Shown here piece after piece: positions 9,433 through 30,131 of a DNA stretch of 64,000 nucleotides (positions within the stretch are counted from its first letter, which is position 1; each line of letters starts with the position of its first letter). Origin of the DNA: Chryseobacterium sp. (lineage in GTDB: Bacteria > Bacteroidota > Bacteroidia > Flavobacteriales > Weeksellaceae); NCBI RefSeq assembly GCF_031286615.1, contig NZ_JAITUA010000008.1, one strand, 5' to 3'. The translations under genes and the position numbers were made by a program. Below the pieces are notes generated by a model. That model worked only from the letters and a program-made list of their open reading frames with translations. It was not told where the DNA came from and did no database searches.

Positions 9433-9454
9433 AAGAACCTTAAAATCAAAGAAT

Positions 9455-10231: not shown

Positions 10232-10243
10232 ATTAACAGAACA

Positions 10244-11178: not shown

Positions 11179-11184
11179 GACAAA

Positions 11185-13311: not shown

Positions 13312-13367
13312 TTAAAAATATTTATTAAACAAAACTATAGCATTCACAGAATAGTAATGTATGTACT

Positions 13368-13442
13368 TGTCATTCTGACAAAGGAAGAATCTCTTTAAGG
13401 AGAAAGATTCTTCATTCCACTTTGTTTCTTTCAGAATGACAG
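13368..13442. repeat. GTCATTCTGA/GAAGAATCTC palindromic intergenic element
   Basis: Nested dyad ttGTCATTCTGAcaaaGGAAGAATCTct...agAGATTCTTC...TCAGAATGACag. Related partial copies are at about 12290-12325 and 41875-41955. Confidence 0.6.
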
Positions 13443-13476
13443 AGAGAATGTTGTAGTTAAAAAACAATTTAAAAAA

Positions 13477-14040: not shown

Positions 14041-14155
14041 TGATGAGTAATAAGTAATGATTTGATGGAAGGAAAAATGGGAACGATATTTCAATGAGTA
14101 TTCAACAGCTTTCATCATACATTTTACTTTTTTACATCGTACATTTTATAATAAC

Positions 14156-14698: not shown

Positions 14699-14809
14699 AA
14701 TAATTAGGCTGGAAGACTGAAGCTGGAGGCTGGAAGTAAATCAGACGCTGTAAAAACTTCCATCTTCCTGCATCCATCTTCTATCCTTTAACAATTAAAT
14801 TTTAAACAA

Positions 14810-15364
14810 GTGAAAACAACAGAAAATATATTAATCGTAGATCTTGAGGCCACGTGTTGGGAAAACCGACCGCCAAGAGGCCAGGAAAGCGAGATCATCG
14901 AGATCGGTGTATGCATCATGAATGCAAAAACCGGTAAGATCTCCAAAAATGAGGGGATTTTAATAAAACCCCAATATTCAAAAGTAAGTCCGTTTTGTAC
15001 AGAGCTTACTACCCTTACCCAAAATATGCTGGATAATGAAGGAATCATGCTGGATGATGCATTCGATATCCTGAGAGCAGAATATGATTCAGAAGAACTG
15101 ACGTGGGCCAGCTACGGAAACTACGATCTGAATATGCTTCAGAATCAGGCAAGAAGATTCTACACAGATTATCCTATGAGTGATGACCATATTAATGTGA
15201 AAACATTATTTGGAGAAACTCATCCTACCATCAGGAAAAGTGTCGGGATGAACAGAGCTTTGGGTGAATTGGGACTTACACTGGAAGGTACACACCACAG
15301 AGGAGTAGATGATGCCAAAAACATTGCAAAGATTCTACATTGGTGCCTGAAAAAGTCCTTATAA
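14810..15364 (+). CDS. DEDDh 3'-5' exonuclease, copy 2 (tandem paralog)
   Basis: 'LIVDLEATCWE' and 'HRGVDDAKNIAKIL'. Collinear with 14156-14698. GTG start. Confidence 0.8.
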   Translation: MKTTENILIVDLEATCWENRPPRGQESEIIEIGVCIMNAKTGKISKNEGILIKPQYSKVSPFCTELTTLTQNMLDNEGIMLDDAFDILRAEYDSEELTWASYGNYDLNMLQNQARRFYTDYPMSDDHINVKTLFGETHPTIRKSVGMNRALGELGLTLEGTHHRGVDDAKNIAKILHWCLKKSL

Positions 15365-15407
15365 AACCATTAAAATTTATATATTTAGATATCTTGAATA
15401 TTAATAA

Positions 15408-16442
15408 ATGACTGAAAAATATAATATCCTGGAGCACATGAGAATGCGTCCTGGAATGTATGTTGGTTTTCTGAACCATTTTGGCTATAATGAATTAATA
15501 AGCTACTTCATTAAAGATTTTATCAGAGCTGACATCTATGATATTACTTTCACCCTGAAAAAAGATAATAGACTGGTTATGAAATGGACTAGTTATAAAA
15601 AAACGCTTTTTAATACAGAAATCATAAAAAAGATTAATCAGTATCAACAAGAACCATTTTATTTATCATTGGCTGGTATTATTGCACTGACAGAGTATTC
15701 TACGATTGAGATTAATGGTGTACCTATACTACAATCAGAAAAAGGAAACTTTGAAGTTTTGGACAGCATTAATTATATTAATGAAGAAGAGACCTGCAAT
15801 TGGACGATTGATTTCATTCCTGATCAAGATATTTTTAAAGGTTTGATATTGAGTTACCAAATTTTGAATGATTTGTTCAGAAGGTTTTCCTTTTTGGATT
15901 CAAATATGAAAATAAAAAGCATTGATGAATCTGAAGATGAACAACAGATCAATATTTTTCATTATCCAAATGGTTTAGCAGAGATTATAAATTATGAAGT
16001 GGAAAAGAGTTTGCTGTATGATTTCTATTTTTTTACATTGAATTTTCGAAAAAAAACAGAATATTCATATTCAGTAGCATTTGCCTTTGCAGATAATCAG
16101 ATCTTTAAACCTAAAATCAAGATATATGCAAATTATCAAGAAACCTTTCTGGGAGGATCTTTACTGGATGGAATTATGCAAGGATTCAAGATGTCTTTGA
16201 AAGAAGAAGCTGCAAAGAGAAATATGAAATTAAATATAAGTACAACAAGACTTAAAAAATACCTGTTGCTTTATGCTTCTGTACAAGGAGAACTTACATT
16301 TTTGGGTTCAACAAGATGGAAGCTTGGAACTCTGAAAGTGCAGACAGAAATTAAGAACTTTATGTATGAAGAGCTAAAACTTTATTTTGCCAATAATGAA
16401 GATAAGGTAATTCATATCCTACAAATTTTACGGGATGAATAG
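15408..16442 (+). CDS. GyrB/ParE N-terminal-like protein with a degenerate GHKL ATP site
   Basis: 'LEHMRMRPGMYVG' matches the GyrB N-terminal signature. The expected E..DN..DE N-box reads 'YFIKDFIRAD'. At 344 aa it has no Toprim or tail. Confidence 0.5.
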   Translation: MTEKYNILEHMRMRPGMYVGFLNHFGYNELISYFIKDFIRADIYDITFTLKKDNRLVMKWTSYKKTLFNTEIIKKINQYQQEPFYLSLAGIIALTEYSTIEINGVPILQSEKGNFEVLDSINYINEEETCNWTIDFIPDQDIFKGLILSYQILNDLFRRFSFLDSNMKIKSIDESEDEQQINIFHYPNGLAEIINYEVEKSLLYDFYFFTLNFRKKTEYSYSVAFAFADNQIFKPKIKIYANYQETFLGGSLLDGIMQGFKMSLKEEAAKRNMKLNISTTRLKKYLLLYASVQGELTFLGSTRWKLGTLKVQTEIKNFMYEELKLYFANNEDKVIHILQILRDE

Positions 16443-17706: not shown

Positions 17707-18132
17707 TTATTGTATATTTCCTCCTAAATCCAATAGAAATTCAGTTACTGTCTTTAAAGATTTACCCTTTTTAGAAGGAATAATCTCTTTGGTAAGATGC
17801 TCTGCACTTAATTTAGCTTCTTCAAATATCTTTTTACCATTGGGAGTAATGACCACATAGCTTACACGGGCATCCCTTTCATTGGTTTCTCTGGCTACCA
17901 GTCCTATTTTTTCCAACGGGTTCAGTAATCGTGTTACCCCAGATGCCGTAAGACCGATTTTTTCAGCAAGATCTATTCTTCGCATCCTGCTCTCAGAAGA
18001 AGAATTCAGAACATAAAGAATAACAAAGTCATTGAATCCCAGGCCATGAACGCTCAGGGAATCAAATTTTCTCGCAATTACAGACTGCAGTTTATTGATA
18101 TTTAATAAAAATAATAATTCGGTGCTTATCAT
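17707..18132 (-). CDS. MarR-family transcriptional regulator
   Basis: Winged-helix region 'RMRRIDLAEKIGLTASGVTRLLNPLEKIGLVARE..ERDARV'. Confidence 0.85.
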   Translation of the reverse strand: MISTELLFLLNINKLQSVIARKFDSLSVHGLGFNDFVILYVLNSSSESRMRRIDLAEKIGLTASGVTRLLNPLEKIGLVARETNERDARVSYVVITPNGKKIFEEAKLSAEHLTKEIIPSKKGKSLKTVTEFLLDLGGNIQ

Positions 18133-18638: not shown

Positions 18639-21335
18639 ATGAAAGAAAGACTTTATGAGATCCTTAATGAGGAAAAGATACATGAGATTATCCCCTTTCT
18701 AAAAGAGCTTAGTAATGAAGAAAGGAAAACACTGGTGCCATCTATAAAGAAAATGGACAGGGAGATCAGTAAAATTGTAATGACTAAAAACTCCTACCAT
18801 ACGGCAGGATCTGTGAATCAGCATTCCATTATTGATATTGCTTCATTTGTCTGCATGGACAAAAAGAATTTCGGTAAAAATTACTGGAGTCTTTTCCGTA
18901 ACGCCGAACAGACCGAACAGATTCTGGAATGGGGCTGCCCGGAATGGTTTTCAGACTTTATCAATGAATCTGTAGAAGCTGAATTTACAGCATTTAACTA
19001 TAAAGATATTTTAGGATGGACAGAAAAGGGCTATATACAACCGAAACCGGAACTGCTGGGACATCATCTGAGCAATTATCCGGCTGAACTGGACCGCCAT
19101 CCCGAAACTCTTAATACACACTTTTGGTATTTATGTGAATATCCTTCCAAATCTTTACCCTTCCGTAAAGAATGGTTTCCAATTGTTCAGAAGCTGATCG
19201 CAGAAAAAAAGATTGAAAGGAAAAGATTTTTGAAAGAATGCCTTCTGGCTTCCAATAGAAATTTTAATAAAAATGTCACAGGTTGGTTTATGGATGCATT
19301 TACTTCATTAAAGCCAACCGAGGAAGAGCTGTCTGAGCTGCAGGATGAATTGCTTGCGGGGCTGGCTTCCTCACAGTCAAAAGCTGTAAATACCATATTA
19401 TCACATTTGAAAAAAATAGTGGGAGTTCCTGATTTTAAAAATGATGAATTTTCCCATTATCTTCCGAATCTGTTGAGCTCGGAAGTAAAAACAGTGGTTG
19501 TATCCAGTCTGGTACTGACTGAAAAAATATTCCAGAGAAAGAAAATAGATCCCGAAATGTTGGGAATGGCTTTAAGTACGGCATTTGTCAGCAAAGATGA
19601 TGGCATACAGTCAAAAGCTGCAAAGATCATTCTTAAATATATTCCGGCTTCAGAAAATATGATAGAGGCACTTTCCCATTATTCAGACAATATACTGACC
19701 AATGTACGTCCTCTTCTTGTAAAATATATTGAAGAAACACAGCCTGAACTGGTGGCAATCGCTTCAGAAAAATTATCTCTGACTACAGAAGAAAATGCAG
19801 TGAAAGTACTTCAGAACTTTGAAGATCTGATGTTTTATCTTCCTTTAGCGATGGATGATCCGTACAGCCATCATTGTGATATTGCTTTGGCTGGATTTAT
19901 CCGCTTTGCCGGAGATGTAAATACGGAATCCGTGAAATTAATAGAACCGGTATTTTTGAAAGCATGTAAAACAATTGCGAAATGGGAAGTTCCCTATCTG
20001 AATGTTTTACTGTGTAATGCTATTATTAATTATGGTTTGGATTTACTGGAAAAATACTCGGTTCAGCTTAAAAACCTGGAAAAAATTTACCATAAGACCA
20101 AAGAAGAGGAAGCAGCAAGAGAATCTTACTCCAATTATCAGAAAAAATTGGGACCGATTGAAAATGTCGGAGCAGATTGTCCTGCAAGAATGGCGTTTAA
20201 GGAGCTGGCTATCTATGCTTATGAAAAAATAAAATCAGGTGATAAGATCCCGTTATTGTTCACGGTTACCCATGCTCCATGTTGGATTTCCCCAGTAACG
20301 TTGGTAGAAAGATTGGAAAGCTATCAGAATAATAATGTTGAACCCCATCATCTGGATATTCAGCTGGCATTGCAGCGTTGTGCTTTAGACAATACTTCAG
20401 AAGCGATCATTGAAGTTGAAAAAAGATTAAAAGGAGAATATAAAGAACTGTTACTTTTCTTCTTTGGCAAAAAAGCTAAGCCGGAAGGAAAATTTGAACA
20501 TCCTTCATGGTGGATGACTGCAGGAATTACCCGTTCGCCGGAAACCGTATTTGAAGAATTCAGCGGTTTCGGGTATGATGATATTCCTTTAGAATTCTTT
20601 TCCGGAGCTTACAAATGGAAGACCATCGATAATAAGAAAAACTCATATTATCCTGTAGAGCTGAAGATTGTGATTCCTAAATATCATCTTGCAAAAAGGG
20701 AAGCACCTTTATTCGTGGAATATTTCGTTGCCGAACAGAAAGAGCTTACCGAAATTCCTGCATTGATGCTATGTTTTCCGAATACTCCGGCAAATGCTTT
20801 GGCAAAAGTAATCAAGCATTGTCTTTTCTTTTCAGGAATAGCCGAAGTCTATGAAAGAAGTCTGGTTTTGAATACAGCGAATGCACTTTATCAGATCAAA
20901 AACCCATTAGACGAAATCGGGTATCTGTTCTTAGGAACTATTTTCCTGGACAGCGATAAAACCATTCGTGGTACAGCAGCTGAAATATGGCTGGAGCATG
21001 TTTCTTCTCAAACGATGGATAATGCGTGGTTAGGAAGGGTGATCGGTCTGCATGAAAAACTGGAATGGGCACCCGTAAAAAGATTAACAGATCTTATGCA
21101 GCATCATATGCTGAATGTCAGTAAGAATCATAATATTGCCCTGGAAGAATTGATTTCCAATATATTGCTTCAAATGGAAACACCGGTTACCAATCTGAAA
21201 AAGATTCTGGAAATCTACCATGAAGTATTGGCTTTGAATCACTCAGAAGCTCATAATGAAATAATAGGGAAATTAAATAGCTGGAAAGAAAATTCGAGTC
21301 TGAAAAAGATCTGTGGCCTTCTTCTGAAGAAATAG
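18639..21335 (+). CDS. large alpha-helical repeat protein (DUF6493-like?)
   Basis: 898 aa, leucine-rich and predicted helical throughout. The stop lies 2 nt before the SWIM gene start. The family name is my recollection only. Confidence 0.5.
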   Translation: MKERLYEILNEEKIHEIIPFLKELSNEERKTLVPSIKKMDREISKIVMTKNSYHTAGSVNQHSIIDIASFVCMDKKNFGKNYWSLFRNAEQTEQILEWGCPEWFSDFINESVEAEFTAFNYKDILGWTEKGYIQPKPELLGHHLSNYPAELDRHPETLNTHFWYLCEYPSKSLPFRKEWFPIVQKLIAEKKIERKRFLKECLLASNRNFNKNVTGWFMDAFTSLKPTEEELSELQDELLAGLASSQSKAVNTILSHLKKIVGVPDFKNDEFSHYLPNLLSSEVKTVVVSSLVLTEKIFQRKKIDPEMLGMALSTAFVSKDDGIQSKAAKIILKYIPASENMIEALSHYSDNILTNVRPLLVKYIEETQPELVAIASEKLSLTTEENAVKVLQNFEDLMFYLPLAMDDPYSHHCDIALAGFIRFAGDVNTESVKLIEPVFLKACKTIAKWEVPYLNVLLCNAIINYGLDLLEKYSVQLKNLEKIYHKTKEEEAARESYSNYQKKLGPIENVGADCPARMAFKELAIYAYEKIKSGDKIPLLFTVTHAPCWISPVTLVERLESYQNNNVEPHHLDIQLALQRCALDNTSEAIIEVEKRLKGEYKELLLFFFGKKAKPEGKFEHPSWWMTAGITRSPETVFEEFSGFGYDDIPLEFFSGAYKWKTIDNKKNSYYPVELKIVIPKYHLAKREAPLFVEYFVAEQKELTEIPALMLCFPNTPANALAKVIKHCLFFSGIAEVYERSLVLNTANALYQIKNPLDEIGYLFLGTIFLDSDKTIRGTAAEIWLEHVSSQTMDNAWLGRVIGLHEKLEWAPVKRLTDLMQHHMLNVSKNHNIALEELISNILLQMETPVTNLKKILEIYHEVLALNHSEAHNEIIGKLNSWKENSSLKKICGLLLKK

Positions 21336-21337
21336 AT

Positions 21338-22681
21338 ATGGAAGGTACGCTTATTTACAACTATTCAGGAGCATCCTCTTTAGTAAGGAGAGGTGCACTT
21401 GAAGAATTGTTTCTCGCTAAATACAGTGAGATACATAAAAATACTGATGCACCATGTTTTTTCTGGGGAAACGTTGGGCAGCCTTTTATTCTGGCACGTT
21501 GTCTGATTACACTGTCCAATATTGTAAAATCAAGTTTTAACCTGTCTCCGTTTCAAATGGCGCTTCTTAAAGATCCGATCGTAACAGCCGGAAATAATAG
21601 ATTACGCTTTGAAGGTTTTTCTCACTGCGCTGGAGTTTACGCAAGAGTTGACGTACTGCCTGAAGGTCTGGAAGGAGAATTTCTTGAAAACGGAACTACA
21701 AATGTAGACTTCAATCAACCAATGATAACTGCGCTGGGAAGCATTCGCCCAAATGAAAAAATCATGCTTTCAGTGGGGAAAAAAGAAGTAGGGCTTTATA
21801 AAGAAGAAGAGAAAATACTAGAAAGAAAAGTTCCTTTACCTGCAAAATGGATTAAAGGATTGGGAACGGTTCAGGTATATTTATCGGAATCCGAAAAACG
21901 CTATACTTTTAATAAAATTCAGACCCAGCAATTATTCCGGGGGATGCCGAAAGGAGTGGTAAAGTCTGATTATTATTTGATTGTGAGAGGAAATAAACCC
22001 GTCTTTTCTCCGGTAAAATCCATGGATGCTGTTTGTATAGGCGGGCTTCACAGGCTTCGTCTTTTAGAACCTCTGCTTCCTTATATTGATTATATGCAGG
22101 TTTTTTCACATTCTAATATGCAGTCTGCAACATGTCAGCTTTATATGGGACCTATCAGATTTAGTTTTTCTTTGTCAAGAGAGTGTTGGAGGGGGTTCTC
22201 AGGAGAAGGAGCAGTCTTGGAAAACCTGATTTCTGAAATTTCTGATGAGTGGATCGATGCTTTGGATAAGTATGCTTATGCCAATCAATCCTTTAATCCA
22301 GACCTGCTTGCTCTGGAAGAAAATCTGAGTTTCAGCAAAACTGATACTATTACAGGAAGGCTTGCAGCAATGGGATTATTGGGGTATGATCTTGATGATC
22401 AAGAATTTTTCTACCGTAGGCTTCCTTTTAAATTAAGTCGTATTATCGGACTCAATCCCCGTATAAAGAATGCCAATAAGTTAATAGAAGACGGAAAAGT
22501 AGAAATTTTAAATAACAATAAAGAAAGAACAGAAGCCAGAGTAGAGGGAACTGGTGTGCACCATACGGTAATCATTGAAGAAGAAAAAGAGCGCTGTACC
22601 TGCGAGTGGTTCAGTAAATATCAGGGTGAAAGAGGTCCCTGTAAACATGTGCTGGCAGTAAAGAAACTGGTAAACAGTTAA
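21338..22681 (+). CDS. SWIM zinc-finger protein
   Basis: C-terminal 'CTCEWFSKYQGERGPCKHVLAV' gives CxC-x(n)-CxH. Confidence 0.8.
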   Translation: MEGTLIYNYSGASSLVRRGALEELFLAKYSEIHKNTDAPCFFWGNVGQPFILARCLITLSNIVKSSFNLSPFQMALLKDPIVTAGNNRLRFEGFSHCAGVYARVDVLPEGLEGEFLENGTTNVDFNQPMITALGSIRPNEKIMLSVGKKEVGLYKEEEKILERKVPLPAKWIKGLGTVQVYLSESEKRYTFNKIQTQQLFRGMPKGVVKSDYYLIVRGNKPVFSPVKSMDAVCIGGLHRLRLLEPLLPYIDYMQVFSHSNMQSATCQLYMGPIRFSFSLSRECWRGFSGEGAVLENLISEISDEWIDALDKYAYANQSFNPDLLALEENLSFSKTDTITGRLAAMGLLGYDLDDQEFFYRRLPFKLSRIIGLNPRIKNANKLIEDGKVEILNNNKERTEARVEGTGVHHTVIIEEEKERCTCEWFSKYQGERGPCKHVLAVKKLVNS

Positions 22682-22788
22682 AACTTTTTCTACCTTATTT
22701 TATTATTTTGCTGACAGTCGCAGGGACGCAAAAATTTTTTTTGATTTTCTTGCGCCTCTGTATTACATCAGTATCTAACAGTTTTATA

Positions 22789-23241
22789 TCAATTTTTTAC
22801 CGAGTTCATCCATTCCTCATAGCTAAGCACACCTAATTCCGGTTTGCTTTCTCCCTCAAGAATAGAGATGAACTCAAGCTGATTTCCATCCGGATCATTA
22901 AAATAAATGGCCAGTGCAGGCATCCACGCAAATACCATTGGCTCAACACTTCCATTTTTTAGGAAATTATATGGCTTTAAATCTTTATTTTCTAAAAACT
23001 CCACTGAATAGTTTAAAATATCTTCTTTACTGCTGGAAAAAGCAAAATGTCTGGTCTGAAGATTCTCCTTTTGCTCCCATAATCCTAACATAAATTCTTT
23101 CCCTTCTCCAACCCATAAAAAAGCAATAGGTCGGGTTTCGTCTCTGTGAGCCATTTTTAAGCCTAGCACTTCTGTATAAAATTGAATTGCATTTTCCAGA
23201 TTGCTTACCTGAACGTGAGTCTCATATATCCCTTTAATCAT
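22789..23241 (-). CDS. VOC (glyoxalase/bleomycin-resistance) family protein
   Basis: 'HVQVSNLENAIQFYTEVLGL' and 'DPDGNQLEF' are paired beta-alpha-beta-beta-beta module motifs. Confidence 0.8.
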   Translation of the reverse strand: MIKGIYETHVQVSNLENAIQFYTEVLGLKMAHRDETRPIAFLWVGEGKEFMLGLWEQKENLQTRHFAFSSSKEDILNYSVEFLENKDLKPYNFLKNGSVEPMVFAWMPALAIYFNDPDGNQLEFISILEGESKPELGVLSYEEWMNSVKN

Positions 23242-23577
23242 AGCTTAATTTTAATAACAAAACTAGAAAACCCTTCCCGAAAAACTTAGAATAGGTGATT
23301 TCTTTAATTGAAATGAATGATAGAAGGATTTTATAATGATGAATGATAAGTTATAAATGATGAATACAATCGTAATATTTCAAACATAGTGTAACTCTAT
23401 GAAATCGGGTTGAAATAATTTTCATATAGTATTCAATAGGAGTGGGCTATTATCCTGAGCGTAGACGAAGGGAGCCCGCCTTATAAATACTCCATTTATA
23501 CGGCTTTAGCCAAAACTTAAAATCTACGTAACCTCTATTCACAATAAAAAATTAGAAAAATTCTAAGAAAAATTTTC

Positions 23578-23613
23578 TACGCAAAAAGGTTGCGCAATAC
23601 TGTTTTTACTTTG
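23578..23613 (+). promoter_or_regulatory. P(rsr): 19-mer TACGCAAAAAGGTTGCGCA, N9, then the -7-like box TTACTTTG
   Basis: The same 19-mer/N9/8-mer architecture occurs at 26791 and 27011. It lies about 60 nt upstream of the ATG at 23674. Confidence 0.55.
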
Positions 23614-23673
23614 CATCAGAAATCAGAGAGGAAGTATCAATTCTTCCCAATGTTTAACAAAAAAACAGTAACC

Positions 23674-25191
23674 ATGAAATTTAATTTTTTAAAAAAAGAA
23701 ACTAAAGTAGTATTGAACTACGAAGGTGCAAAAGCATATGCGATGACACCTGCAGAAGAATTGTATAGTGCTGTTGTTACAACAGGACTGTCAGATGCCA
23801 ACTATGAAAAAGGAAATGACAGATTGGAAAGAATCCAGTCTCTGATCAAAAAAAATGATCCGGAATTTGTGGCAAAACTGGCAGTGTATGCAAGAAAATA
23901 TATGTATTTACGTTCCATTCCATTGGTGTTGACAACTGAACTGGCAAAACAGACTTCCGGTACGGATCTGGTAAGCAAAACAGTGGACGGTGTCGTTCAG
24001 AGAGCTGATGAAATCACAGAATTGCTGGCATATTACCAACTTGCCAATAAAAGAACAGATACTAAAAAACTGAATAAACTGTCAAAGCAGATTCAAAAAG
24101 GTCTGGTGAGATCATTCAATAAATTTGATGAATACCAGTTTGCAAAATATAACAGAAAAGCGGAAGTAACCTTGAAAGACGCATTATTCCTGGTTCACCC
24201 GAAAGCCAAAGATGAAAATCAGCAAGCTGTTTTCAACAAAATTGCCAATAATACACTGGAAACTCCATACACATGGGAAGTAGAGTTTTCCGTTTTGGGC
24301 CAGACGAAATTTGCTAATGATGCAGAAAGAAAGTTAGCTTTCAAAAACAAATGGGAAGAACTGATCTTCAGCAACAAATTGGGTTATATGGCAACCATGA
24401 GGAACCTGAGGAATATCCTTGAAGCGGGTGTATCATCTGATGCAATGAATAAAGTATGCAGATATCTTTCCGATGAAAGAGCGGTATACAATTCAAAGCA
24501 GCTTCCATTCCGATTTCTGGCGGCTTATAGGGAATTAAAAACTATAGATTCTCCTTATTTGTCTTCAGTATTGGAAGCATTGGAAAATGCTGTGGTGGTA
24601 AGTGCAAAAAATATCAAAGGCTTTGGTTTTGATACTTCGGTAGTGATTGCTGCGGATGTATCAGGTTCTATGCAGAAACCAGTTTCCAATAAAAGTAAAA
24701 TCTTGCTGTATGATATAGGTTTGTTGATGTCCATGATTCTTCAGTCACAGTGTAAAAATGTGGTGACAGGTATCTTTGGTGACCGTTGGCTGAGAGTTCC
24801 AATGCCTAAAAATGGTATCTTAAGAAATGTAGATGCCTTCTACAAACGCGAAGGTGAAGTAGGATATTCTACTAATGGCTACTTGGTCATCGAAGATCTG
24901 ATCAAAAGAGGTGAAAAAGTGGACAAAGTAATGCTATTCACTGATACTCAGTTGTGGGACAGCACTGGAAGCAGAAACTCCTTTGAAGACCTGTGGAACA
25001 GGTACAAAATGATCGCTCCCAATGCAAAGCTGTATATCTTTGACCTGGCAGGTTATGGTACACAGCCGCTTGATATCAGAAAAAATGATGTACATCTTAT
25101 AGCCGGTTGGTCAGACAAAATTTTCGATGTACTGAACGCTTTGGAAGACAAAAAATCAGCCGTAGAAATGATTCAAAAAGTAGTGCTGTAA
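23674..25191 (+). CDS. rsr: Ro60-related TROVE plus vWA protein (Rsr)
   Basis: Start trimmed to the ATG at 23674. 'LNYEGAKAY', 'EFVAKLAVYAR..MYLRS', 'LAYYQLAN', 'LPFRFLAAY' and the C-terminal vWA 'VVIAADVSGSM' are all present. Confidence 0.85.
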   Translation: MKFNFLKKETKVVLNYEGAKAYAMTPAEELYSAVVTTGLSDANYEKGNDRLERIQSLIKKNDPEFVAKLAVYARKYMYLRSIPLVLTTELAKQTSGTDLVSKTVDGVVQRADEITELLAYYQLANKRTDTKKLNKLSKQIQKGLVRSFNKFDEYQFAKYNRKAEVTLKDALFLVHPKAKDENQQAVFNKIANNTLETPYTWEVEFSVLGQTKFANDAERKLAFKNKWEELIFSNKLGYMATMRNLRNILEAGVSSDAMNKVCRYLSDERAVYNSKQLPFRFLAAYRELKTIDSPYLSSVLEALENAVVVSAKNIKGFGFDTSVVIAADVSGSMQKPVSNKSKILLYDIGLLMSMILQSQCKNVVTGIFGDRWLRVPMPKNGILRNVDAFYKREGEVGYSTNGYLVIEDLIKRGEKVDKVMLFTDTQLWDSTGSRNSFEDLWNRYKMIAPNAKLYIFDLAGYGTQPLDIRKNDVHLIAGWSDKIFDVLNALEDKKSAVEMIQKVVL

Positions 25192-25355
25192 AAGGCACTG
25201 CTTTTAAAAATAACAACTGACATTGATCAAAACAATCAATATATTTAGGAGCTAATCCTGCTTTCCACTATATCTTTTTCGCCAAAGCTTTTCTCAAGCC
25301 ATTCAGAAAAAGGATGCCGTTGCAATCAGGGCTATTGAATCAAACTATATATACT

Positions 25356-26018
25356 ATGAAACTCATTAATACCATTGAAATAAGCCCGTTACGATATTCC
25401 AGGGAAGAAGTCGAATTACCGGAAATTTCCGATTATCCAGACCACGAAGAATGGTTTGCAAAATGGGAAGAAGCCGTTTCTCAACTGAATTTTAATTTTG
25501 AGGTCATTGAGAAAGGATCTTATTTGACAGATATCGAAACAATAGATGACGAAAATCTGAAGATGATTGTAGAAGCCAAAATGGAAGACACAGAACCAGA
25601 CGAATCTGAAGAAGATATATATGTCATGGCTTTTGACGGAGGAATTGTATTAAAAATAGAAGATAAAATATTGATACAACCTAACTGTTGTGGTGATATA
25701 AGCAATATTGAAGATTGGAAAAATATTTTTAATACACCATCTTCGGAATGGAAAGACCTTTGGATAGGACATCCATGGGTATTTTACAAAAGGGAAAATG
25801 GGAAAGTCTGCTTCTCAGAATATACAGAATCCAATATTGAAGATGTTGAAAATATAAAAATTGTTGCAGAAGTAGAAGAATCCGAACTTAAAGCAGAGTT
25901 AGAAAAAGTAATCATGCAACAAATCAATTTACAAAACAGAATAGTATCTGTTCTAAAAACGCTGAATTGTAAATATCCAGAGAAAATTTCAAAGCAATTG
26001 GCTGGAATTAAAGAATGA
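25356..26018 (+). CDS. acidic hypothetical protein
   Basis: Start trimmed to the ATG at 25356, because the upstream codons fall in a repeat-like sequence. No motif recognised. Confidence 0.5.
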   Translation: MKLINTIEISPLRYSREEVELPEISDYPDHEEWFAKWEEAVSQLNFNFEVIEKGSYLTDIETIDDENLKMIVEAKMEDTEPDESEEDIYVMAFDGGIVLKIEDKILIQPNCCGDISNIEDWKNIFNTPSSEWKDLWIGHPWVFYKRENGKVCFSEYTESNIEDVENIKIVAEVEESELKAELEKVIMQQINLQNRIVSVLKTLNCKYPEKISKQLAGIKE

Positions 26019-26254
26019 CATAGGAAATGGAGGCGTTAAGAAAATAAACTATGCGAACGTTAAGAAAATTCTATTGTTTGAAGCGCGACACATAAATTGA
26101 AACGAAGAAGTAATATTACATTCGCGCAAGTTTTAGAATTTTTAGAGAGTGTAGATTATTTTTAGCCGGAATTTCCAAGTCTTGAACTTTTGGTTCTTTT
26201 GCTTCAAGGCAAAACGAACAAATATTTCAATAAAAATAAAACTGCTTAAAAATT

Positions 26255-26782
26255 ATGGAAAATTTATTTTACAGAATTGAACAGGATCTTAAAGAAGGCA
26301 GAAAGAAAAAAGCATGCGACAGACTAAGAAATATGATTAATCAGTTTCCCAATGACCTTTCCTTAAGAAAAAAATTAGGACAAATTTATTTTGAAGCAGG
26401 ATTTCTTGACGAAGCAGGTAAATTCTGGATTCTGTCTAAACCAGAGAATAATGAAATGGAAGCTGCAGTAGAGATTTACAGAAAGTCTTTAAGCAATTCA
26501 GGAAATGCAATTTTAAATGATATTGTTTTCAGAGGAGATAAAGATTTGCTTGATGAACATGCAAAAAAAGTAATCTTGGAACTTGAGCACGATAGCTTTA
26601 GAGTAACCGGACAAATTCCAACTTTTAAAGCGAAAGCAAGAGAAAAAGGACGTTATTCGGAAGACAAGACAAATTTTCTAGGCCAAATTGGATTTTTTTT
26701 ATTCATTGGATTTATTATTTTACTTCCGGTTTTAGGGATTTTTAAATTGTTTGAATTGATCTCATCATTATTTTCTCAATAA
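26255..26782 (+). CDS. hypothetical protein with a helical-repeat N-terminus and C-terminal TM anchor
   Basis: 175 aa. C-terminal 'FLGQIGFFLFIGFIILLPVLGIFKLF'. Confidence 0.5.
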   Translation: MENLFYRIEQDLKEGRKKKACDRLRNMINQFPNDLSLRKKLGQIYFEAGFLDEAGKFWILSKPENNEMEAAVEIYRKSLSNSGNAILNDIVFRGDKDLLDEHAKKVILELEHDSFRVTGQIPTFKAKAREKGRYSEDKTNFLGQIGFFLFIGFIILLPVLGIFKLFELISSLFSQ

Positions 26783-26790
26783 AAATAAAC

Positions 26791-26826
26791 TACGTAAAAA
26801 GATTGCGTACATATAATATAATTTTA
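26791..26826 (+). promoter_or_regulatory. 19-mer TACGTAAAAAGATTGCGTA, N9, then TAATTTTA
   Basis: Second copy of the rsr-type promoter architecture. It lies about 15 nt upstream of the first Y-like RNA 5' module. Confidence 0.5.
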
Positions 26827-26840
26827 CAGTGTTAATAATA

Positions 26841-26990
26841 CTGGTGCCGTTAGAAAGGCCTACTTCGATTCAAAACTGACAGAGTCTTTCAACAGATTGC
26901 CCGGTAGCTATAACCAATGTCGTTCATAAGAGTTCCATCATCAAACTTTTAATTTGACTAGAATCAAAAACTCTTATACATTGTTACTTG
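26841..26990 (+). ncRNA. Y-RNA-like element a (divergent, no T-arm)
   Basis: 5' module 'GGTGCCGTtAGAaAGGCCTACTTCG' is nearly identical to element d. There is an internal 9-bp stem ATAAGAGTT/AACTCTTAT and the 3' end reads 'TTGTTACTTGG' plus a T-run. It lacks GGTTCGA. Confidence 0.3.
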
Positions 26991-27010
26991 GTTTTTAATA
27001 AAAAAACAAC

Positions 27011-27046
27011 TGCGTAAATTGAATGCGTACCAGCAATATAAATTTG
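27011..27046 (+). promoter_or_regulatory. 19-mer TGCGTAAATTGAATGCGTA, N9, then TAAATTTG
   Basis: Third copy of the architecture, with a perfect TAnnTTTG box. It lies upstream of Y-like RNAs b, c and d. Confidence 0.55.
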
Positions 27047-27077
27047 TGAAAAGAATAAAGCTAATAATTATAAAAAG

Positions 27078-27201
27078 CAAGTGTCGTAAAACAGAGTTAC
27101 TTCTTTAGGGACGGTAATACAGGTTCGAATCCTGTTCTGCAGCAGCAGATAGTAGAAATGGTAACACCCCGTATTGGTCTCTGTTTGATCTAATTACCTT
27201 G
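27078..27201 (+). ncRNA. Y-RNA-like element b
   Basis: Terminal helix CAAG...CTTG plus AAACAGAG/CTCTGTTT flanks an internal loop (5' TGTCGT, 3' GATCTAATTAC). T-arm ACAGG-TTCGAAT-CCTGT is followed by hairpin TCTGC-agca-GCAGA. Confidence 0.6.
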
Positions 27202-27211
27202 TTTAAATTAT

Positions 27212-27353
27212 ATCAAGTGTCGTTTTAGAATCATACTTCGAGATTGAATAAACATTGGGTCGCAGGTTCGAATCCTGCCTTTTCCCTCGAAAAGGAGAGG
27301 TAGCTCAGCAGGTAGAGCAAATGCACGGAAGATTCTGAGAATTTTACCTTGAT
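27212..27353 (+). ncRNA. Y-RNA-like element c with a circularly permuted tRNA-like module (YrlA-like)
   Basis: Terminal helix ATCAAG/CTTGAT plus TTTTAGAATC/GATTCTGAGA. T-arm GCAGG-TTCGAAT-CCTGC. Closed acceptor stem CTTTTCC-loop-GGAGAGG. D-arm TA-GCTC-AGCAGGTA-GAGC. Confidence 0.7.
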
Positions 27354-27357
27354 TATT

Positions 27358-27460
27358 AAAAGAGTGCCGTAGAGAAGGCCTACTTCGGTTTAATTTGGTT
27401 CGACTCCAGAAGGTCATGGAAATGATCTTGTACAAGTCTTTTCGAATCTTGCCTCTTTTT
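27358..27460 (+). ncRNA. Y-RNA-like element d
   Basis: 5' module 'AGTGCCGTAGAGAAGGCCTACTTCG'. T-arm TTTGG-TTCGACT-CCAGA. Acceptor-like hairpin AGGTCAT-ggaa-ATGATCT. Terminal AAAAGAG/CTCTTTT plus a T-run. Confidence 0.5.
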
Positions 27461-27478
27461 ATTTTAAAATTAATAACA

Positions 27479-28318
27479 ATGAATATACCAAGTAATCTGA
27501 CTGAATTTTTATACTGGGTCAAAGAACGTACAGAAAAACTGTGGTCTGTGGATGATGAAAATTGTCCTAAAGGATTTTACGGTGCCCAATGGCAGGGACT
27601 TTCTGAAGAACAGATCAATCAGATTGAGAGGAAATATGACATTAGCTTTACATCTGAACATAGAGAATTTCTAAAAATTCTTCATGCCATCGACAAAAAA
27701 GTAATTGTTGAATATGAAGATGAAGGAGAAATGGTTACAGAAGAATGTACTTTCTTTTATAATTGGCTTGAAAATGAAGAGGAAATAAGAAAAATAATGA
27801 ATACACCATATGATTGGATGCTGGATGATATTGATTCAGTGAATAAAGTTTGGTTAAAATCATGGGGAATAAAGCCTGCATCCTTGGAAAAGAGAAAAGA
27901 AATTTTTGATGAATGGTTTTCACATGTTTCAACACTTTTACCACTCATGGGAACTCGTTATATAATAAGTGATGTAGATCTTGTTTGGAGACCTGTGCTT
28001 TCTATAAGAGGTTCAGATATTGTCATTATGGGATGGGATTTCAGAACTTATTTATTAAATGAGCTAGGAGGTTATCTTGATATTCATATTGACGTTTTTG
28101 ATGAAGAAGATCAGATGTTCTACCCTGAACTTATTGATGAAGTACAACAAATATTTAATGAAAACTATAAATATGATGAAACTAAAGACATTCCTTATTT
28201 GAAAGAAATGATTCTTTACTGGTCTTCCGGATGGAGTAGTTTCGGTTTAAGTTATCACCCGGAAAATGCCAGAGTTCATCCTATTGTTAAAACATATATT
28301 GCTGAAGAAGAAAAATAA
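27479..28318 (+). CDS. SMI1/KNR4 (SUKH-1)-like protein
   Basis: Start trimmed to the ATG at 27479, because the track start at 27395 overlaps Y-like RNA d. 'LSEEQINQIERKYDISFTSEHREFLKIL' is the typical SUKH-1 N-terminal signature. Confidence 0.55.
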   Translation: MNIPSNLTEFLYWVKERTEKLWSVDDENCPKGFYGAQWQGLSEEQINQIERKYDISFTSEHREFLKILHAIDKKVIVEYEDEGEMVTEECTFFYNWLENEEEIRKIMNTPYDWMLDDIDSVNKVWLKSWGIKPASLEKRKEIFDEWFSHVSTLLPLMGTRYIISDVDLVWRPVLSIRGSDIVIMGWDFRTYLLNELGGYLDIHIDVFDEEDQMFYPELIDEVQQIFNENYKYDETKDIPYLKEMILYWSSGWSSFGLSYHPENARVHPIVKTYIAEEEK

Positions 28319-28323
28319 AACAA

Positions 28324-28472
28324 ACAAGTGCCGTAGAAAAATGTTACTTCGCTCATCACGACGGGGTCACGGGTTCGAGTCCCGTCTCTTCCACAGCAAA
28401 AAAACACGATGTATATAGGAAGAGTAGCTCAGTTGGTTAGAGCACGACTGCATTATTCGGCTGTTGCCTTGT
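28324..28472 (+). ncRNA. Y-RNA-like element e with a circularly permuted tRNA-like module (YrlA-like)
   Basis: Terminal ACAAG..GCCG / CGGC..CTTGT. T-arm ACGGG-TTCGAGT-CCCGT. Perfect 7-bp closed acceptor stem CTCTTCC-(25-nt loop)-GGAAGAG. D-arm TA-GCTC-AGTTGGTTA-GAGC. Confidence 0.7.
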
Positions 28473-28483
28473 TTTCATAAAAT

Positions 28484-28600
28484 CAGAAGCCGGAAGTGGG
28501 AAGTTGAAAGATATCTTTGTATTATAATTTTCTATAAAGTCAGATAGATTTTTCGGACTTTACCCTCTTTCTTTTTCCCACTTCCAGCTTCTTTATAGTA
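28484..28600. repeat. long GGAAGTGGGAAG-type hairpin
   Basis: AGAAGCCGGAAGTGGGAAG ... CTTCCCACTTCCAGCTTCT inverted repeat. Related GGAAGCTGGAGG words occur at 14705-14775. Confidence 0.5.
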
Positions 28601-28607
28601 CTATTAT

Positions 28608-28736
28608 GAAGTGTCGTTAGGAAAAAATTCATCGCACCATAATGACGGGAGGAATAGCGAAGCCGGTTATTCCGGCAAGGTTATCCGGTTCGACTCCGGC
28701 AAACGAAAGCCCGGTTTTTTCCTTATTATTACCTTT
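28608..28736 (+). ncRNA. Y-RNA-like element f (tRNA-like parts in non-permuted order)
   Basis: 5' 'GAAGTGTCGTTAGGAAAAAA' pairs with 3' 'TTTTTTCCTTATTATTACCTT'. Internal hairpins GGAATA-..-TATTCC and GCCGG-ttatt-CCGGC, plus T-arm CCGG-TTCGACT-CCGG. Confidence 0.5.
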
Positions 28737-28737
28737 A

Positions 28738-28775
28738 AAAAAGTGCCGGTAAACTATTTACCGGCACTTTTCATT
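28738..28775. terminator. bidirectional terminator
   Basis: AAAAGTGCCGGTAAA-cta-TTTACCGGCACTTTT. The right arm overlaps the 3' end of the minus-strand HTH gene. Confidence 0.7.
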
Positions 28776-29089
28776 GTATCAAGCTCTTCTTCAAACATGA
28801 GTCTCCATTTTGAAAGAGTAGTTCTGCTTATTTTATATTTTCTGGACATATAGCTTGTTGAATGACCGTGCTTTTTCTGATACTGCAGCAATTTTAACAT
28901 AGTCTGTCTGTCATATGTTTTGAGTTTTTGATTTTCTCTGGACTGCTTGAACAGTTTTTCATTGAACTTCAGAACATCCTCACTGGTATTAAGTTTTTCA
29001 AGAAGTTCTTTTATTTTCGGATCTTTTAGCTTTTCCGGATATTCCATCTTTAGCATATCCTGATAAATTTTTTTGTAATTGGGGCGCAT
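28754..29089 (-). CDS. helix-turn-helix protein (transposase-accessory-like, no catalytic domain)
   Basis: C-terminal 'HSTSYMSRKYKISRTTLSKWR' is an HTH. Confidence 0.55.
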   Translation of the reverse strand: MRPNYKKIYQDMLKMEYPEKLKDPKIKELLEKLNTSEDVLKFNEKLFKQSRENQKLKTYDRQTMLKLLQYQKKHGHSTSYMSRKYKISRTTLSKWRLMFEEELDTMKSAGK

Positions 29090-29100
29090 GTTTTATTTGT

Positions 29101-29529
29101 TTATCCGTTTACATTATCGCTCTTCTGAAGCCATCTGTGAAGAGTACTTTTCGGAATAGAATACTCTTTAATAACTTCACTTTGGGTCATTTCACCGGAA
29201 AGAATCCTCTTCATAATAAAATCTTTAATTTCCTGAGTGTAAATGTTTTTCCTGAAATAAGGCGTTTTTTCGGACTTCTGCTGGTTCTTGTTGATAGCAG
29301 AAGGAGGTGCATATAAAATCAAATGGGAGCTGTAAAGTCTGAAAAAATCATATTCCAATAATTTGCTCCATCTTAGAAGAAGATCCGTATCCATTGATTT
29401 GCTGTCATACATTACATCGATCGTTCTTTCATCTTTACCTAAAAATTTGCATATCCTTTCTATTGTTATTTCATTTTCATCTACCCTTTCCTTAATAAAT
29501 TTCCCAATATGGATTTCTTTGTATAACAT
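29101..29529 (-). CDS. helix-turn-helix protein (two HTH-like segments)
   Basis: 'ITIERICKFLGKDERTI' and 'TQSEVIKEYSIPKSTLHRWL'. Confidence 0.55.
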   Translation of the reverse strand: MLYKEIHIGKFIKERVDENEITIERICKFLGKDERTIDVMYDSKSMDTDLLLRWSKLLEYDFFRLYSSHLILYAPPSAINKNQQKSEKTPYFRKNIYTQEIKDFIMKRILSGEMTQSEVIKEYSIPKSTLHRWLQKSDNVNG

Positions 29530-30131
29530 TTTTATTGAATATTATTCTTTTGATTAAACTTATATATCAAAAAAACGAAATAGAATATATATTATTTCGT
29601 GTGGCGGAAAATAATTCACTTCAATTTGAAATTGATAAGAAATAGAAATTATGATGTAAGAATGTTAAATTACATTTAATAAGATGTTAGTCTTAAAAAA
29701 CGGAACTGTAACTTACCAAATATCTTAAAAACAGGTGGGTAGGAGTCACCTTAATACTTGGGATATATTCTTTATTTTCAATGGGTTTCTTCTTCTTCTC
29801 TTTCAAACTTCTCTTCCTGCCATTTGTGTAAATAATATAACCTATTAAGGTTTTTTATGTAATTCTATGAGTTGAAGCTGTAGATAGGTTGGTATACAGC
29901 TTTTTACGCGTTGAATTTTTTAATTAGTACCAAATAATTGCTTATTCGTTTTCAAATGTAAACAAAAATAAGAAGTAAAAAGAGATGGAAATGTAAAAAT
30001 TATACTTTACATGCTGATTTTAATTAAAATTAACATATTATAAGAATTAATGTGTGAATTGTTTACAGGTGACACGCTTCATCATAGAAAAATGATAAAA
30101 AGAAAAAATTGTATACCATTGGGACAGTCCA

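Follow-up and report, generated by a model that had tools for sequence, protein, structure and literature searches.

An Rsr (Ro60) gene followed by an array of seven probable Y RNA genes in Chryseobacterium

YrlA RNAs (RF02553) have been described from Salmonella Typhimurium, from Mycobacterium smegmatis and from over 250 further bacteria and phages (Chen et al. 2014, PMC4201824; Wang et al. 2018, bioRxiv 10.1101/312249). Their genes lie no more than 4 kb from rsr and share its strand; the RNAs pair their 5' and 3' ends into a stem bearing a GNCG-type motif, carry a T-arm 5' of a D-arm, the two arms being separated by a closed acceptor-like stem, and keep a YUAY element ahead of a variable region. 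In Deinococcus radiodurans, several small RNAs (Yrn1, Yrn2 and small RNAs a, b and d) that are polycistronic with tRNA and co-induced with rsr lie beside the gene and mix T-arm-bearing RNAs with plain hairpins, their Ro-binding helix being conserved on both strands, although the accepted Y RNAs are only two and lie upstream of rsr. Thermus phage phiLo likewise has two Y-like RNAs, Yrl1 and Yrl2, that bear a CGAA motif and lie upstream of its Ro60 gene (PMC12135203; structures 9KOP and 9L5Y), while vertebrate Y RNAs (2-4 per species) and the stem-bulge RNAs of nematodes, with multiple paralogues per genome, join a variable effector loop to a bulged terminal helix that is conserved for Ro60. For Bacteroidota Y RNAs, the searchable literature yielded no expression, end-mapping or Rsr-binding data.

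The locus compared here lies in a 64-kb stretch of Chryseobacterium sp. DNA (the window). An earlier note had described a Ro60 gene trailed by a cluster of Y-RNA-like genes; that observation is real, and the account of Chen et al. 2014 given with it, namely that bacterial Rsr binds Y RNAs encoded nearby and that YrlA carries a tRNA-like domain, is accurate against PMC4201824. As far as sequence comparison can speak, its Y-RNA interpretation is supported as well, and we consider it likely that this is an Rsr (Ro60) ribonucleoprotein locus made up of the protein gene and seven Y RNA (adaptor RNA) genes:

23674..25191, + strand: rsr, Ro60 homologue of 505 aa; TROVE HEAT-repeat ring and Ro60-type vWA with MIDAS DVSGSM
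26839..26906, + strand: putative Y-like RNA a1, 68-nt hairpin without tRNA-like domain (descriptor; nhmmer E 1e-4; alifold)
26912..26993, + strand: putative Y-like RNA a2, 82-nt long hairpin without T-arm (descriptor; nhmmer E 8e-3; alifold)
27075..27204, + strand: putative Y-like RNA b; Rsr-type stem, T-arm, closed acceptor-like stem and degenerate D-arm
27212..27353, + strand: putative Y-like RNA c; full YrlA-type permuted domain with T-arm, 7-bp acceptor-like stem and D-arm
27358..27459, + strand: putative Y-like RNA d; Rsr-type stem and short T-arm (UUGGUUCGACUCCAG) only, then a U-run
27479..28318, + strand: 279-aa ORF between d and e; weak SUKH/SMI1-like similarity only (Pfam E 0.005-0.014)
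28322..28474, + strand: putative Y-like RNA e; full YrlA-type domain, 7-bp acceptor-like stem CUCUUCC/GGAAGAG, loop of about 31 nt
28607..28737, + strand: putative Y-like RNA f; Rsr-type stem, extra conserved stem-loop and T-arm, no D-arm
28739..28771, + strand: terminator-like hairpin (AAAAGTGCCGGTAAA...TTTACCGGCACTTTT) closing the array; perfect 14-bp inverted repeat, then T-rich sequence

Judged by its Pfam and PDB matches, the product of the ORF at 23674-25191 is a full-length Ro60/Rsr homologue. Profile searches agree with the TROVE motifs and C-terminal vWA MIDAS previously read from it (TROVE, E 1e-28; vWA_Ro60, 29.1 bits against a cut-off of 27.7; DVSGSM present), and residues 15-494 align with the phiLo Ro60 structures 9KOP/9L5Y (E 1e-27), the closest solved ones. 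Since the NCBIfam Rsr equivalog model scores the same ORF at 21 bits against a cut-off of 900, we regard it as a divergent Ro60; its orthologues are 85-97% identical in 80 Chryseobacterium/Epilithonimonas genomes.

Downstream of rsr and on its strand, seven RNA modules (a1, a2, b, c, d, e and f) occupy 26839-28737. Six had been listed in the earlier note; all six start points are real, and the count rises to seven because its element a (26841 to about 26995) comprises two hairpins, a1 and a2. A descriptor for the structure (stem of 4 bp or more, then a bulged T, G-C, Y-R and CGT) finds exactly these seven on the + strand and just five weaker matches elsewhere in about 126 kb of two-strand sequence, and a 5'-module profile HMM trained on sequences from other genomes only returns the same seven in the 64 kb and nothing further at E <= 10. 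At the level of simple motifs, AGTGYCGT occurs six times in the window (0.98 expected), five times within 27080-28617 on the + strand, and six of eight GTGYCGT sites fall within 26844-28611 on that strand. The T-arm motif GGTTCGA(A/C/G)TCC was found in b, c, d, e and f and, in the same search, was absent from element a, just as had been read, and b, c and d are indeed contiguous, with spacers of 7 nt and 4 nt.

All seven have one rigid signature at the 5' end (stem, bulged U, G-Y, CGU-N9-YUACUUCG) and, at the 3' end, a partner of the form UU-R-C-stem. The two ends of each RNA form helix 1 (5-7 bp), a bulged U and two further base pairs, G-C and Y-R, inward of which lie an internal loop starting CGU(A/U), helix 2, a YUAC bulge and then UUCG. 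This Rsr-type terminal helix reads CUGG/U/GC/CGU ... GC/CCGG in a1, which also has CUACUUCG, and CCAA/U/GU/CGU ... AC/UUGG, followed by a U-run, in a2. GYCGU(A/U) near the 5' end stands in place of the canonical GNCGAA or CGAA motif, and resembles the Ro60-contacted motifs GNCGAA of YrlA and GGUCCGA of metazoan RNAs (PMC4201824). The distal ends vary by paralogue: a1 and a2 are plain hairpins, a2 resembling YrlB/Yrn2; d and f have a T-arm only; and b, c and e carry a full permuted tRNA-like domain of YrlA type (T-arm, closed acceptor stem, D-arm), the D-arm being missing from d, f, a1 and a2.

Likeness to YrlA thus lies in position and strand relative to rsr, in the terminal stem with its GNCG-type motif, in the YUAY element and, for b, c and e, in the order of the tRNA-like arms; in c and e, the acceptor-like stem of 7 bp is reminiscent of M. 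smegmatis YrlA, an RNase P substrate. Unlike YrlA, the Ro-site here is UGYCGU(A/U), the docking helix is conserved on both strands rather than on the 5' strand only, and there are seven units per locus (genus mode 7, maximum 11) where 355 YrlAs were reported in 276 genomes. Compared with Deinococcus, the RNAs number seven, are all built on a single rigid docking module, follow rsr instead of preceding it and make up an orthologous paralogue series genus-wide, and neither an array nor permuted tRNA-like domains have been reported for phiLo. The modular logic is that of the animal Y RNAs, which differ in their bulged residue and motif and in having no tRNA-like domains.

Covariance models gave a divided answer. 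Against a gathering score of 69 bits, Rfam YrlA matched c (33.9 bits, E 1.7e-4) and e (36.9 bits, E 2.2e-5) at about half that threshold and also, again below it, the same module type in phage-like loci. Though sub-threshold, these matches are specific. There was no YrlA match for a, b, d or f and no metazoan Y_RNA match among any of the modules. The claim of a YrlA-type tRNA-like domain holds for b, c and e: once circularly permuted, each was called a tRNA cloverleaf by ARAGORN, as were their permuted orthologues (b 17/28, c 70/72, e about 70/71), with 0 calls among 300 shuffled controls. One could argue, then, that the genuine Y RNAs are c, e and possibly b, and that a1, a2, d and f, lacking D-arms and Rfam matches, are non-functional or degenerating duplicates which owe their 5' module to recent duplication. 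We think this very unlikely, as a2, d and f are distinct orthologous lineages (58-75 modules in species whose Rsr is 85-97% identical) with compensatory changes of their own (18 pairs in f, 4-5 in d and a), which points to purifying selection on structure rather than decay, and as the known Y RNAs YrlB and Yrn2 are also without tRNA-like domains (PMC4201824).

Sequence, structure, paralogue repertoire and synteny are conserved well beyond this genome, and this independent support is strong. When rsr loci of relatives were compared, the same seven types were found to follow rsr, in the order a1-a2-b-c-d-e-f, in about 77 Chryseobacterium species. A locus has 3-11 modules, most often 7 (77 informative loci, 6 kb downstream of rsr, same strand), over a background of 0.029 per kb. 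Spacers between modules are typically 4-7 nt (peak 5-6 nt; 226/477 are <=12 nt). Per element, 97-99% of base-pair cells remain paired, a share that falls to 28-67% when the partners are slid, and 4-18 pairs show compensatory changes. Element a keeps 98.4% of cells paired (5 compensatory pairs), with G-C/A-U covariation by alifold in the a1 terminal helix; a2-type units number 67 loci-modules. The figures are 97.8% for b (15/28 pairs compensatory, including 4/8 in the terminal helix; Y-R pair U-A in 18 and C-G in 10), 98.4% for c (72 sequences, 7 pairs), 98.6% for d (75 loci-modules, 4 pairs), 99% for e (71 sequences, 8 pairs) and 97.2% for f, where 18/32 pairs are compensatory and 0/500 shuffles reached the observed value.

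A common promoter motif joins the array to rsr. The operator TRCGYA-N7-TRCGYA with TAnnTTTG has only three sites in the window, preceding rsr, a1 and b:

23578..23613, + strand: predicted rsr operator/promoter, TACGCA-N7-TGCGCA then -7-like box TTACTTTG; begins about 95 nt before the ATG
26790..26826, + strand: predicted promoter P1, operator CTACGTAAAAAGATTGCGTA and Bacteroidetes-type -7 box TAATTTTA; ends 12 nt before a1
27010..27046, + strand: predicted promoter P2, operator CTGCGTAAATTGAATGCGTA and -7 box TAAATTTG; 28 nt before b

CTRCGTAAANNGAWTGCGTA has just two matches in the window (0.01 expected). The operator motif recurs about 95 nt upstream of rsr in 78/80 Chryseobacterium loci, many loci keep the P1 motif at a distance of 46-50 nt ahead of a1-type modules, and in other species a P2-type promoter serves first a 73-aa protein gene and next b/c-type units. 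Some 14-15 other species also have the operator motif about 145 nt ahead of an RNase T-like gene.

Could the modules be tRNA-derived repeats that have decayed, or signals for processing and termination that punctuate the mRNAs of embedded ORFs, rather than stable trans-acting RNAs? Subsets of species do have ORFs inside or beside the array, U-runs come after a2, d and e, and single-sequence folding energies of the modules are no better than those of shuffles (z -0.5 to -1.65). The ORFs are variable, however (16-33/80 loci; DUF6584, the 279-aa ORF and, in other species, the 73-aa protein), whereas nearly all loci have the RNA modules, in a constant order, and many arrays are free of any ORF (for example, locus L016); the 279-aa ORF itself occurs in just 16-17/80 loci, the d-e gap elsewhere being about 10-20 nt, and is by this comparison an accessory insertion outside the core array. 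Moreover, compensatory changes maintain multi-helix architectures far more complex than terminators, and P1 would direct straight into a1. To us, a punctuating role is therefore most unlikely.

The array's surroundings bring in tRNA. A 16-tRNA array with RNA ligase and exonuclease genes lies 7-18 kb upstream, and on IMG/VR contigs, where Rsr homologues of 46-62% identity accompany 3-9 modules with the signature UGYCGU-N9-YUACUUC (a phage link that recalls phiLo), some modules abut tRNA genes, and related phage-like contigs interleave the two. Together with T-arms in five of seven units and three full permuted tRNA-like folds, this could suggest tRNA-mimic decoys or repair substrates which act apart from Rsr, for instance by soaking up anticodon nucleases, other tRNA-targeting toxins or tRNA-modifying enzymes within the neighbouring island, adjacency to rsr reflecting a shared stress regulon only. 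Yet the best-conserved portion of all seven units is the common 5'/3' terminal module that resembles known Ro60-binding sites, not the tRNA-like portion; any tRNA-like part is missing from a1 and a2; and the modules accompany rsr homologues of as little as 46% identity. We consider decoys unlikely.

The reading we favour, Y RNAs that serve Rsr, makes the locus an expanded form of the known Rsr-Y RNA system, and from sequence and analogy we infer that the array RNAs would be expressed, processed, bound by Rsr and diverse in their partners. P1 would drive a1-a2 and P2 b-c-d, probably running on to e-f, both under the operator found upstream of rsr, and the primary transcripts may be cut to single RNAs at the 4-7-nt spacers. 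By analogy with Deinococcus, Salmonella and phage phiLo, each Y RNA might gate the Rsr ring and tether Rsr to a different partner, candidates being PNPase, or RNase T-like exonucleases and the RNA-repair enzymes of the adjacent island, possibly in an RNA-damage response. Chryseobacterium would possess an unusually large and diversified set of adaptor RNAs, the kind by which Ro60 is normally steered.

Our findings make it probable that the Ro60/Rsr locus of the window includes seven genes for Y RNAs, which share a common Rsr-docking module and carry effector modules of three kinds. The protein at its head had been read in the earlier note as a TROVE-vWA product, and profile searches agree: Pfam places a TROVE domain (HEAT-repeat ring; PF05731, E 1.1e-28, 101 bits vs a cut-off of 23) and a C-terminal Ro60-type vWA domain (PF25045, 29.1 bits vs 27.7) above cut-off, and the translation has the MIDAS motif (DxSxS) in the form DVSGSM. 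Moreover, residues 15-494 align with the Ro60 structure of Thermus phage phiLo (9KOP/9L5Y, E 1.2e-27). Since the NCBIfam equivalog RNA-bind_Rsr (NF041674) scores only 21.4 bits vs a cut-off of 900, the product is not a curated Rsr equivalog; judged from its sequence, it is a genuine Ro60 homologue of a divergent clade. Orthologues are 85-97% identical in 80 Chryseobacterium/Epilithonimonas genomes, and our comparison covers these 80 closest loci, the homologue search with Rsr having returned, among the matches listed, Chryseobacterium-level relatives only (at least 84% identical).

The Ro60 homologue gene rsr and the seven Y-RNA-like units 3' of it, each unit found by both structural descriptor and profile HMM
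23674-25191, + strand: rsr, 505 aa, N-terminus MKFNFLKK
26839-26906, + strand: a1
26912-26993, + strand: a2
27075-27204, + strand: b
27212-27353, + strand: c
27358-27459, + strand: d
28322-28474, + strand: e
28607-28737, + strand: f

The units were located in two ways. One is a structural descriptor that calls, in this order, for a stem of 4 bp or longer, a bulged T, one G-C and one Y-R pair, and CGT. It matches exactly seven times on the + strand, at a1 to f, and elsewhere in the 64-kb window only five times, more weakly and on either strand. The other, a profile HMM trained on the 34-nt 5' module of other genomes only, picks out all seven sites (E 1.6e-6 to 8e-3) and, at E <= 10, no further site in the window. 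Together with the enrichment of GTGYCGT (eight occurrences on both strands of the 64 kb, six of them in 26844-28611 on the + strand) and of AGTGYCGT (six vs 0.98 expected in the window), the descriptor matches confirm as real all six start points proposed in the earlier note. Its positions thus stand and its count does not, as element "a" consists of two hairpins, a1 and a2, which makes seven units; RNAalifold on 46 orthologues also folds "a" in this way. T-arm motifs lie in b, c, d, e and f and in neither a1 nor a2, in line with the five of six elements of the earlier note. All seven modules are on the + strand, 1.65-3.55 kb 3' of the rsr stop.

What the paralogues have in common is a 5' module, UGYCGU, exactly 9 nt and YUACUUCG, that is rigid in spacing; in this genome the YUACUUCG element of a2 and f is degenerate. 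On the 3' strand of the module, UU-R-C precedes the complement of helix 1. The two ends of each RNA pair in a conserved terminal helix, whose 5'-strand motif is common to all paralogues and which covaries in b, f and a1. Y RNAs in the functional sense combine a Ro60-docking terminal stem with a variable effector module and are encoded beside Ro60; the descriptor and profile matches show that the units have the terminal helix of such RNAs. Single-sequence folding energies are unremarkable, no unit being significant vs shuffles (z -0.5 to -1.65), so that support for the units is evolutionary and not thermodynamic. Between e and f lies a long, very stable hairpin (28485-28592, + strand; dG -40.7 kcal/mol, z -6.1), which looks like an inserted element because it is confined to the 27 closest loci, e and f being about 10 nt apart in other species.

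The comparison of rsr loci suggested in the earlier note shows that the elements keep their strand and order 3' of rsr, each in 54-74 species (blastn, 80 loci). By descriptor, the 77 loci that extend far enough have 3-11 modules (mode 7) within 6 kb 3' of rsr, over a background of 0.029 per kb. Among 554 modules, 64% carry a T-arm, 28% carry both T-arm and D-arm and resemble c and e, and about 28% are short hairpins. Alignments for covariation were built from sequence similarity and independently of the structural descriptor, so that the test is not circular.

Pairing in the orthologue alignments of the units
a: 98.4% of cells paired, 5 compensatory pairs; slid control 28-67% (range for a, d and e)
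b: 97.8% of cells paired, 15 of 28 pairs compensatory, including 4 of 8 in the terminal helix
c: 98.4% of cells paired, 7 compensatory pairs; slid control 36-47%
d: 98.6% of cells paired, 4 compensatory pairs; slid control 28-67% (range for a, d and e)
e: 99.0% of cells paired, 8 compensatory pairs; slid control 28-67% (range for a, d and e)
f: 97.2% of cells paired, 18 of 32 pairs compensatory; 0 of 500 shuffles as high

The Y-R pair of b, for example, is U-A in 18 sequences and C-G in 10. Each paralogue has persisted as a separate line of orthologues and has compensatory changes of its own, which speaks against redundancy among the copies.

Marks of the YrlA class, bacterial Y RNAs with a permuted tRNA-like domain, include Rsr binding and modification by TruB and DusA. 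At gathering thresholds, Rfam finds no Y RNA in the window, its matches being tRNAs and a Flavo-1 motif only. In E-value mode, the YrlA model (RF02553) matches e (36.9 bits, E 2.2e-5) and c (33.9 bits, E 1.7e-4); hence the Infernal search that the earlier note proposed has a mixed outcome, neither a clear pass nor a clear refutation: these two are seen weakly, both being below the gathering score of 69, and a1, a2, b, d and f have no RF02553 match. Modules on phage-like contigs are likewise sub-threshold for YrlA (39 and 34.8 bits). With all matches sub-threshold, an entire Bacteroidota/phage clade of Y RNAs goes undetected by the present Rfam models. The metazoan Y_RNA model (RF00019) has no match at E <= 10 in 22500-30000; the units do have a bulged helix analogous to the metazoan GGUCCGA helix, albeit of different sequence. 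Where YrlA has the motif GNCGAAN0-1G, the seven units read G-Y-C-G-U-(A/U), retaining GNCG and replacing AA by U(A/U). All modules lie inside the distance that Chen et al. 2014 took as a criterion for YrlA, about 4 kb from rsr and in its orientation, and b, c and e, but not a1, a2, d or f, have the permuted domain of T-arm, closed acceptor-like stem and D-arm.

This architecture, which defines YrlA (Chen et al. 2014; Wang et al. 2018), amounts to tRNA mimicry. ARAGORN in native orientation predicts no tRNA in the Y-array region; once the sequences of b, c and e are doubled, which exposes a circular permutation, its intron mode yields a cloverleaf for each, with the closed acceptor-like stem as acceptor stem and the putative Rsr-docking stem as "intron". 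Orthologues give the same call for c (70 of 72), e (about 70 of 71) and b (17 of 28), as opposed to none in 300 shuffles, none for a1 or a2, and none for d or f when run together with b, c and e. The T-arm, acceptor-like stem and D-arm helices of b, c and e covary in the alignments. Acceptor-like stems are 7 bp long in c and e, a length that made M. smegmatis YrlA an RNase P substrate (PMC4201824), and by this analogy we conjecture that c and e might be cleaved by RNase P.

Not all reading frames in the region belong to the conserved locus. A 279-aa ORF between d and e occurs in only 16-17 of the 80 loci, and a 220-aa ORF and a DUF6584 ORF between rsr and a1 in only 28-30, so these three are accessory insertions. 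There are three other accounts of the array: that the units are tRNA decoys acting independently of Rsr, as the cloverleaf calls could be taken to mean; that they are punctuation signals of mRNAs; or that only c and e, the two with a YrlA match, are functional. All three are less likely than an array of Y RNAs, because the most conserved feature is the common docking module, the ORFs are dispensable, and units that are not of YrlA type are under structural selection.

Another small gene lies inside the Y RNA arrays of 31-33 species and is absent from the window. It encodes a conserved 73-aa basic protein (…GCSYCFPHG…QRNWKKYRKTQWK; L004 at 12358-12579 on the + strand, L005, L008, L021, L029 and other compared loci), has putatively the same operator and promoter as element b, and makes a candidate RNA-binding partner. 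What seems to be left of this gene's 5' UTR in the window is the 28-nt leader of b. Pfam and NCBIfam searches with the 73-aa, 220-aa and 279-aa proteins returned nothing above threshold. The Flavo-1 motif (25250-25337, - strand; RF01705, 59.9 bits, above gathering score) sits 59 nt past the rsr stop on the opposite strand, and 47 of the 80 Chryseobacterium loci have a copy 50-170 nt 3' of rsr. Despite this synteny we rejected it, as unproven, as an Rsr-associated RNA, since Flavo-1 is a multi-copy motif found genome-wide in either orientation (PMC9723704).

Within the array the spacers are short: 5 nt between a1 and a2 and, consistent with the contiguous b-c-d run of the earlier note, 7 nt between b and c and 4 nt between c and d. 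Genus-wide, 226 of 477 spacers measure at most 12 nt, with a peak at 5-6 nt, which argues that the units are made as polycistronic precursors, such as have been shown experimentally in Deinococcus and M. smegmatis (PMC4201824). A perfect 14-bp hairpin with a T-tract (28739-28771) marks the end of the array.

Upstream signals tie the array to rsr. The 20-nt motif CTRCGTAAANNGAWTGCGTA has just two copies in the window, at 26790 and 27010 (0.01 expected), which are followed by the Bacteroidetes-type -7 boxes TAATTTTA and TAAATTTG, the first ending 12 nt before a1 and the second 28 nt before b. A close variant, TACGCAAAAAGGTTGCGCA then TTACTTTG, starts about 95 nt 5' of the rsr ATG. Relaxed to TRCGYA-N6-9-TRCGYA, the operator occurs at three sites only in 64 kb, before rsr, a1 and b, and it is found 5' of rsr in 78 of the 80 loci. 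A scan for sigma-70 promoters and terminators gave counts equal to those of shuffles; the Bacteroidetes-type TAnnTTTG boxes were identified by eye and by conservation. In some 14-15 other species (including L026, L027, L038, L040, L044, L048 and L051), TRCGYA-N7-TRCGYA with TAnnTTTG also stands about 145 nt 5' of an RNase T-like exonuclease gene. In the window, 14030-14165 and 14690-14820 are without the operator, which does not precede the RNase T-like gene here, and a further copy in L029-L032, L038, L062 and L065 has no ORF of at least 60 aa within 250 nt 3'. We infer a small regulon of rsr, the Y arrays and, in some species, the exonuclease, under one putative DNA-binding protein. Directly after the terminator and convergent to the array are genes for two small HTH proteins of 111 and 142 aa (28754-29529, - strand), which are kept in 52-53 of the 80 loci and are possible regulators of the common operator. 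A MarR protein encoded at 17707-18132 on the - strand is a further candidate.

Farther upstream, at 7-18 kb, lie a tRNA array and a set of RNA-repair genes.

Upstream island
5728-8034, + strand: 16 tRNA genes
8094-16442, + strand: RNA-repair-type gene set

The set encodes an RNaseH-like protein, two R2K ATP-grasp proteins, a cREC_REC (cyclic-phosphate receiver) protein, DinB, an Rnl2-type RNA ligase, a metallo-beta-lactamase-fold protein, a calcineurin-like phosphoesterase, two RNase T-like exonucleases (14156-15364) and a GyrB-like protein. Synteny with rsr extends to the phosphoesterase and RNase T genes of the set in 52-63 of the 80 species. Just upstream of the tRNA array are bpX1 and bpX3 domain genes of a MoxR-vWA-beta-propeller ternary conflict system (74-4731, + strand). 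Between the repair island and rsr, genes for an 898-aa DUF6493/DUF7824/DUF7825 protein and a 447-aa SWIM zinc-finger protein (18639-22681, + strand) are likely an inserted two-gene module, being present in only 31-34 of the 80 loci.

Relatives outside the genus come from viral contigs. Scanning IMG/VR DNA with the 5' signature gave about 120 matches, mostly single and due to chance, and among the contigs matched only L118 (identical to L211) encodes Rsr. This protein is 46% identical to that of the window, and three modules upstream and five or six downstream of its gene have the signature UGYCGU-N9-YUACUUC. With a protein profile, 31 rsr loci of viruses or prophages came to light, and the closest among them have multiple modules: L201 (Rsr 62% identical, 8 signature sites), L202 (57%, 4 sites) and L203 (54%, 3 sites). 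Overall, the IMG/VR homologues are 46-62% identical, with 3-9 modules around them. In L201 and L203 the modules run head-to-tail and are interleaved with tRNA genes inside large tRNA arrays. The exact signature was not found at the more distant rsr loci of the viral and prophage set, which may use other docking sequences.

Regions with Rsr homologues and modules on viral contigs
L211: 5585-8546
L201: 6116-8900
L203: 11346-13176

If RYPER of Deinococcus, YrlA of Salmonella and the phiLo phage system are a guide, each RNA may gate the Rsr ring and tether Rsr to nucleases or repair enzymes during RNA damage. Without Ro60, Y RNAs tend to be unstable. A bolder proposal, which we consider doubtful, is that Chryseobacterium and its relatives, phage-borne ones included, have turned the Rsr-Y RNA system into a co-switched multi-adaptor toolkit with different enzyme partners and possibly RNase P-cut members. 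Y RNAs of seven to eleven distinct structures, each retained as an orthologous lineage of its own, would each dock one Rsr ring to a different RNA-repair or RNA-decay enzyme of the adjacent island (such as RNase T-like exonucleases, the Rnl2-type ligase or PNPase), and one regulator acting at TRCGYA-N7-TRCGYA would switch all of them on together. With their 7-bp acceptor-like stems, b, c and e might moreover become two-piece RNAs through RNase P cleavage and CCA-tailing, for which M. smegmatis offers a precedent (PMC4201824).

Y RNAs beside rsr, tRNA mimicry, more than one Y RNA per species and polycistronic precursors are already established (PMC4201824). New in the searchable literature, where we found no paper on Bacteroidota Y RNAs (c/e-type matches may be tabulated in the supplement of Chen et al. 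2014), are the size and fixed composition of the array, which has seven units in the window and as many as eleven elsewhere in the genus, the putative variant docking motif, the way in which this clade systematically falls short of Rfam thresholds, the operator common to rsr and the Y arrays, and the phage-borne relatives interleaved with tRNAs. So far, what is understood of how Y RNAs diversify Ro60 function comes from three bacteria and a single phage, with only a handful of RNAs among them. Our findings tie Rsr and its Y RNAs to the tRNA-array/RNA-repair island through the common operator and, in other species, through the RNase T-like gene. With seven putatively co-regulated Y RNAs, one docking module and at least three effector classes, conserved across a culturable, genetically tractable genus, the locus is a natural experiment on what effector modules do and which proteins they recruit.
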